DNA of 64,000 bases from Cystobasidiomycetes sp. EMM_F5 (lineage: Eukaryota): positions 62,001 through 126,000 of the forward strand of contig JBPGPT010000013.1 in NCBI GenBank assembly GCA_051047955.1. Reading direction: 5' to 3'. The notes beneath the pieces were generated by a model. That model did no database searches and was not told where the DNA came from. It saw only the letters and a list, made by a program, of their open reading frames with translations. Position numbers and translations under genes: made by a program. This document shows, one piece after another, positions 4,726-5,672 of the stretch (position 1 is its first letter; each line of letters starts with the position of its first letter).

Positions 4726-5672
4726 TCACTTCGCCTTCTCGCCGCGAATACGACGTGCAAGATCCATACTGTCAGGCAGAATCAGCTGCGGAGCATGACA
4801 ACGTACGAAACGAAACGGCATCTTACTCCTTCGGTTGGATAGTGACGCGCTGTCGGTCACGCATGGCGCCTCAGTCGTGCAGCTACTAGCAATAACAGTC
4901 ACAAATTCCTGACGTACCTTGGCGTGAATAGCACAAAGATTAACCTGATCGCACAGTGAGCATGATAATCGGCTACCGTTTCGAATTTGACCTACATCTT
5001 CGAAGAGTTCTGAAGAAAGAAATTGATCAGTAACGAAGCAGCCACTGCATCAACAGCCTCACTTACCGACTATGTACGCCTCAGCGGCCTGCCATGTCCA
5101 GAACGTCAAACATCACCTCCAACAGGGCAGTCGGAATTGACTACTGACTTCTTGTAGAGCCCCAAGGGCCCTGGCCTGAAAGCGGAGGTTAGGTACGAGA
5201 TCCTGCGCAATCTAGTACAGTGAGAACGTCGGCCAGAGTCCTCTTTGGCATGCAACGATCGTGTAACCTTCTGCTCACCTCGCGTACGAGCCTCTGAAAG
5301 GGTAGCTTCCGAACTGGGAGGTGATACGTGATTGAGTCAGCCGTCATGACAATTGCGTGACGGTGAAGATCTGGACTCACTGAGAAGCTCGGTAGTCTTC
5401 TGGTACCTTCGAATCTCGCGCAAGGCCACGGTGCCGGGGCGATAGCGACTGGCCGGAATCAGGGATCAGAGGATCGTCCTTGTATCGCAAGACCGACGCT
5501 TACCGCTTTTTGCGTTCGCCCACCTGTTTTGCAACCACGGCGCGCCGACTGGCCCTGTTCGCTGCATCTGCATCGCGGTCATACCTTTTCGCGGTCATCT
5601 GCTGGGCATCGCGCGCAGTCAGAGTGATCGTTGATAAAGAGTGACCGTAACACTGACCTTTGTGAACGCCAT
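4726..5672 (-). CDS. Divergent histone H3 variant (10 exons)
   Basis: Spliced [135 protein letters not shown]. All 9 introns are GT-AG and preserve frame. Confidence 0.93.

Follow-up and report, generated by a model that had tools for sequence, protein, structure and literature searches.

A solitary, intron-dense gene of a Cystobasidiomycetes yeast encodes a histone H3 with a rewritten tail and no K79

The minus strand of positions 4726-5672 of the window (the whole 64-kb stretch of Cystobasidiomycetes DNA analyzed here) carries a 10-exon, 9-intron gene whose product is a 135-residue histone H3. The protein keeps the histone fold intact, whereas most of its tail has been rewritten and K79 is gone. 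Judged from its sequence, it is a real, lineage-specific H3 variant that is probably functional. We lean, by a little, toward reading it as a functional, lineage-specific, non-centromeric H3 variant of this yeast, encoded by a solitary, intron-dense gene away from H4; we infer both its lack of a centromeric role and its biological setting.

We built the gene model by coordinates from the minus strand of 4600-5800 (Table 1). After splicing, a single open frame runs from ATG to TGA. All nine introns (56, 55, 67, 67, 60, 57, 51, 68 and 58 nt, from the first to the last) are of the GT..AG type, and five of the nine carry a CTRAY branch-like motif close to the intron 3' end. The nine frame-preserving introns claimed in the original prediction are thus borne out, and the frame contains no disabling lesion. 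Retention of any one of introns 1-6 or 9 leads to a premature stop; retained intron 7 would add 17 extra residues, and with intron 8 retained the frame runs past the stop codon. The nine introns interrupt just 408 coding bases, and four exons (exons 1, 6, 7 and 9) are micro-exons of 15, 22, 14 and 23 nt, respectively; the adjoining genes have exons hundreds of codons long.

Table 1. Exons of the H3 variant gene and its presumed upstream region (positions in the window)
Feature	Positions	Strand	Content
Presumed 5' UTR and promoter (putative role)	5673..6145	-	between the start codon and the final coding segment of the TCP-1/CCT gene upstream
Exon 1, 15 nt	5658..5672	-	start codon 5672-5670; first five residues, H3 N-terminus-like
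Exon 2, 98 nt	5504..5601	-	rewritten tail with acidic DRDAD patch and KK pair; CAG|CAG tandem acceptor
Exon 3, 68 nt	5381..5448	-	αN and start of α1; 22/22 canonical save S57T
Exon 4, 35 nt	5279..5313	-	α1, Q68 retained
Exon 5, 63 nt	5149..5211	-	end of α1, L1 (LVPN for FKTD, no K79), start of α2 (RALG); IAQ lost if the exon begins at the alternative 5202
Exon 6, 22 nt, micro-exon	5067..5088	-	α2
Exon 7, 14 nt, micro-exon	4996..5009	-	α2
Exon 8, 27 nt	4918..4944	-	T107V; C110 and H113 retained
Exon 9, 23 nt, micro-exon	4827..4849	-	L2 and start of α3
Exon 10, 43 nt	4726..4768	-	α3, hydrophilic H3-like C-terminus, stop codon 4728-4726

Intron 4 ends in tandem acceptors (5203-5214), a TAG followed 9 nt downstream by a CAG. 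The upstream TAG, from which exon 5 begins at 5211, yields exactly the canonical IAQ and a protein of 135 residues, and the downstream CAG deletes these three α1 residues, leaving 132. Because H3 proteins align in tblastn from 5211 onward, we take the TAG to be the real junction. A 132-residue model that used the CAG acceptor at 5203 and lacks IAQ was dropped in favor of the longer one. A second tandem acceptor, CAG|CAG at the end of intron 1 (5599-5604), makes Q5 optional on paper. As both acceptor pairs are in frame, Q5 and the three α1 residues could, on paper, each be present in some isoforms and absent from others.

Residue by residue, we compared the variant with S. pombe H3.1/H3.2 (P0222). 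The fold is collinear with that of H3 through αN and α1-L1-α2-L2-α3, gapless given the upstream acceptor of intron 4, and 79 of its 99 residues are identical, whereas the tail (residues 1-37) is identical at only 13 of 38 positions (Fisher p 1.1e-6 for the contrast). This difference argues for selection on the fold during the rewriting of the tail. The Pfam histone fold, PF00125, is carried by the variant's nearest relatives.

Within the tail, R2 has become F, S10 R, K14 D, and K23 and K27 both R, while K18 is deleted. Both ARKS contexts are absent and an acidic DRDAD stretch has been gained. The tail carries a net charge of +8 with five lysines, compared to +12 with eight lysines in S. pombe H3. 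All length changes in the tail are in frame. The first nine residues remain H3-like, with K4 and K9 unchanged. In the core, L1 is altered at four consecutive positions (F78L, K79V, T80P and D81N), which turns FKTD (78-81) into LVPN. Further changes include S86A, S87R and I89L, so that residues 87-90 read RALG, and T107V. Alongside K4 and K9, the residues K56, Q68, F84, C110, H113 and T118 are unchanged, and the C-terminus is short, basic, hydrophilic and H3-like. The original prediction had described the rewritten tail with its lost R2, S10, K14 context and ARKS motifs, the gained acidic patch, the surviving K4 and K9, and the core changes together with the retained K56 and C110, and our alignment to S. 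pombe H3 agrees on each of these. Two of its statements needed adjustment. The K36/K37-like pair is present as KK, but it lies one residue nearer to αN than in H3 and basic residues occupy the positions of P38 and H39. Likewise, Q68 and F84 are kept as claimed, but α1 and L1 have their canonical length only if intron 4 is spliced at the upstream TAG.

These features suggest how the variant might behave in chromatin. With αN, the DNA-contact arginines, the C110/H113 four-helix bundle and G90 all kept, it would be expected to pair with H4 and to enter ordinary nucleosomes, probably by replication-independent deposition. Such nucleosomes would lack the substrates for S10 phosphorylation, for acetylation of K14, K18, K23 and K27, for K27 methylation and for K79 methylation by Dot1, and would instead bear an acidic patch within a less positively charged tail. 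Since S10, K27 and K79 are absent, the corresponding marks cannot be placed on the variant, in line with the predicted refractoriness to S10 phosphorylation, K79 methylation and K27 methylation. The outcome would be chromatin that is blind to those marks, in which K4, K9 and the K36-like pair may still be used. In this natural H3, the nucleosome core is kept while the substrates of Aurora (S10) and Dot1 (K79), the acetylation sites and K27 are removed together. If expressed, the variant would amount to a natural experiment on the function of those marks and would suggest that this phyllosphere-type yeast has a specialized chromatin state.

The alternative that we weigh most seriously, although we consider it unlikely, is that the protein is the yeast's CenH3/Cse4 in an unusually H3-like form, with basidiomycete CenH3s, or this one at least, keeping Q68, F84 and a short L1. 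The C-termini by which CenH3s are bound by CENP-C are hydrophobic, and that of the variant is, by contrast, short and hydrophilic. As set out in Drinnenberg et al. 2014, quoting Malik and Henikoff, CenH3s are diagnosed by an extended L1 and by the loss of a conserved Gln in α1, a conserved Phe before α2 and a conserved Thr. The variant fails three of these four diagnostics: its L1 is of canonical length, and both Q68 and F84 are kept. For the Thr, the answer differs with the position chosen, for residue 107, cited by the original prediction, is a V in the variant, whereas T118, the position given by Drinnenberg et al. 2014, is retained. The diagnostic value of L1 is itself qualified, in that its extension is described as not obligatory for CenH3 in Dictyostelium (PMC2995078). 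The tail is divergent overall (13 of 38 positions identical), and basic residues replace P38/H39 just before αN, yet the first nine residues are H3-like and αN-α1 is canonical save S57T. The gene is solitary, as a CenH3 gene would be, and P0403, an H3-like protein of Psilocybe whose tail is foreign, likewise retains Q68 and F84, with V as its residue 107. Against a centromeric role also stands the statement of Sridhar et al. 2021 that CENP-A is robustly conserved across basidiomycetes.

A related proposal, with a slim chance of being right, sees in the gene a centromeric histone that the lineage has newly evolved from canonical H3 and that has kept the first residues, Q68, F84 and the canonical loop 1. 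If true, it would represent a replacement or re-invention of CenH3 in a basidiomycete yeast.

Part of the case for a centromeric role comes from a fast-evolving H3-like family that we found in 13 Rhodotorula and Sporobolomyces species (P0093, P0166, P0016, P0167, P0172, P0175, P0177, P0178, P0039, P0184, P0186, P0194 and P0198), whose annotation says no more than histone H3 or H3.1. Its members have a rewritten tail with a conserved tail motif and have lost K79. W84 is present in 12 of the 13 and C71 in 7; Q68 is kept in 10 and T107 in 5, and L1 is extended by 1-5 residues in 7. The R. toruloides NP11 member is UniProt M7WN44, and Supplementary Data 1 of Sridhar et al. 2021 lists M7X4Z3 as the CENP-A of that strain. 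Because M7WN44 is not the listed CENP-A, the family may represent either an unrecognized third class of H3 or a second gene of the CenH3-like kind. It has in common with the variant a Pucciniomycotina origin, an H3-like start followed by a rewritten tail, the loss of K79, and in α2 the changes S86A, I89L and V96A together with an acidic side chain at 102. The divergence of the variant's fold from S. pombe H3 (20%) is also near that of the family (22-33%). By contrast, the variant lacks W84, C71, the variable L1 and the conserved tail motif of the family, whose introns, as read from the read-through ORF P0057, lie elsewhere.

Two trees bear on this relationship, with the 13 Rhodotorula/Sporobolomyces proteins as their only CenH3-like comparison; a search of representative proteins with P0093 returned, among the best 150 of 18,446 matches, canonical H3s with extensions and no usable CenH3 set. 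A quick tree of 113 rows came from a poor search, as a constrained tree was 18.9 log-likelihood units better, and left the placement of the variant unresolved. We therefore rely on a careful tree, whose 58 rows were hand-chosen from the 113. Here, a branch with 100/99 support parts the 13 proteins from the variant, which falls on the canonical side, in a group supported at 91/91 with four metagenomic H3 variants (P0197, P0238, P0244 and P0217). However, approximately unbiased (AU) tests did not reject a clade of the variant and the 13-member family in either the quick tree (p 0.8) or the careful one (p 0.497, log-likelihood difference 1.1). A tree of 98 columns cannot decide the relation of the variant to the CenH3-like family. 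The view that the protein is unlikely to be CenH3 therefore holds as far as L1, the Gln and the Phe are concerned, and is weakened by the changed T107, the shared α2 changes, the AU result and the non-obligatory L1 extension.

The four metagenomic proteins have features of their own: all four lack K79 and carry basic residues for P38/H39, and two have P at position 80. Their grouping with the variant could be convergence or could reflect an unrecognized K79-less class of H3.

Among the functions open to an H3, we continue to favor a non-centromeric one, and the setting of the gene is consistent with it. In tblastn with 235 H3-family protein queries, 4726-5672 was the sole H3 locus of the 64-kb window, and no H4-like gene was found there with the H4 from the metagenome locus L001 as the query (best match E 8.6). 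A solitary H3 gene without an H4 partner is the layout of replacement variants, and within the 64 kb the gene follows that of H3.3-type replacement genes, being intron-bearing and outside H3-H4 pairs. Of the H3.3 signature, only A88 and G90 match within residues 87-90 (RALG), and the region of residue 31 is not alignable.

The variant shares with the canonical or replacement H3 of S. pombe the collinear fold, αN, Q68, F84, K56, C110, H113, G90, the first residues and the C-terminus. It departs from canonical H3 in its tail, where R2, S10, K14, K18, K23 and K27 are gone, in an L1 without K79, in V at 107 and in the replaced P38/H39, and its gene differs in lacking an H4 partner and in being split by nine introns. 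Rai et al. 2019 (PMC6703697) describe non-centromeric H3 variants as rare among fungi. Our literature searches found no description of this H3 variant, and the nearest characterized fungal case is H3V-CTG of Candida albicans. As described by Rai et al. 2019, H3V-CTG differs from canonical H3 at three positions (31, 32 and 80). Like the variant, it is fungal, lineage-restricted, encoded outside H3-H4 pairs, changed at residue 80 and non-centromeric, the last a property that we infer for the variant. In contrast to those three differences, the variant differs from H3 at about 45 positions, with most of the tail rewritten.

Searches for relatives bear on a second alternative, which we regard as improbable: that the gene is a young or dying functionless H3 duplicate, intact by chance and silent or barely expressed. 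The tail exon, searched against a collection of 5.8 billion proteins, gave 65 candidates, none at E<=10, and against metagenome contigs gave 597 pattern matches, of which none was confirmed. Such an absence would fit a functionless duplicate, as would the ambiguity of the tandem acceptors of introns 1 and 4. Yet each of the 18 splice-site dinucleotides is intact, as is the frame with its start and stop, although two thirds of the tail residues have changed, and the sharp difference in conservation between fold and tail is not a product of neutral decay. Taken together, the intact splice sites, the in-frame tail indels and the contrast between fold and tail argue for selection.

A diverged relative also speaks against a functionless duplicate. 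With exon 3 and its flanking intron codons as the query, H3-like proteins were retrieved, 540 of 615 candidates at E<=0.01, with 120 listed. P0004, a Logan read-through ORF of 213 aa on a 1,674-bp contig, matches the junctions of the gene at introns 3, 4, 5 and 6, with donor 3, acceptor 3, donor 4, acceptor 5 and donor 6 in common. It differs in sequence, with G for K56 and a different basic run ahead of αN. Because the junctions match while the sequence differs, the gene lineage is present in another assembly, where P0004, judged from this comparison, is a diverged relative (orthologue or paralogue) with the same gene structure.

Because no predicted protein containing the tail exon was found, this micro-exon-rich gene was probably overlooked or mis-modeled by annotation, and it illustrates how genes with exons of 14-23 nt can escape annotation. 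The announcement of the isolate's genome (PMC12697161) gives 52% G+C and gene prediction with Funannotate, mentions no RNA data, and reports no sister taxon among 27 genomes of the class; the absent annotation and the absent close orthologues both fit this account.

It is highly improbable that the gene is a transposon passenger or an artefact of the gene model, as no convincing terminal inverted repeats flank it (the longest pairs, of 14-23 nt and 74-93% complementary, lie within neighboring sequence), it is located between housekeeping genes, and the splice model follows the H3 fold at every residue. The gene upstream of it, in the same orientation, encodes a TCP-1/CCT chaperonin, with PF00118 on the ORFs 6146-6646, 6624-7214 and 7461-7880, and the window also encodes a class-II aldolase, Chs5, a catalase, an aspartyl protease and a SprT-like gene, a fungal gene content. 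Ten ATG-to-stop ORFs were looked up by exact sequence; five are present in the protein collection, and three of these five fall into 90% clusters together with NCBI proteins named Cystobasidiomycetes sp., which puts the window in Pucciniomycotina. An Rfam scan of 3200-7000 gave no match.

Among the matches listed, the best over the full length was P0113, a metagenomic H3 with 68.7% identity to the 132-residue model. P0113 combines a near-canonical fold with a rewritten tail of its own, and a longer member of its cluster, P0254, has the canonical-looking start of an H3 tail upstream of the rewritten stretch. A degenerate pattern of exon 4 with its splice sites found three loci in metagenome contigs (L001-L003), all of them chance matches in intronless H3 genes: these encode V on either side of the same α1 stretch, which makes the pattern match coincidental. 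On the L001 contig, the opposite strand additionally encodes an H4.
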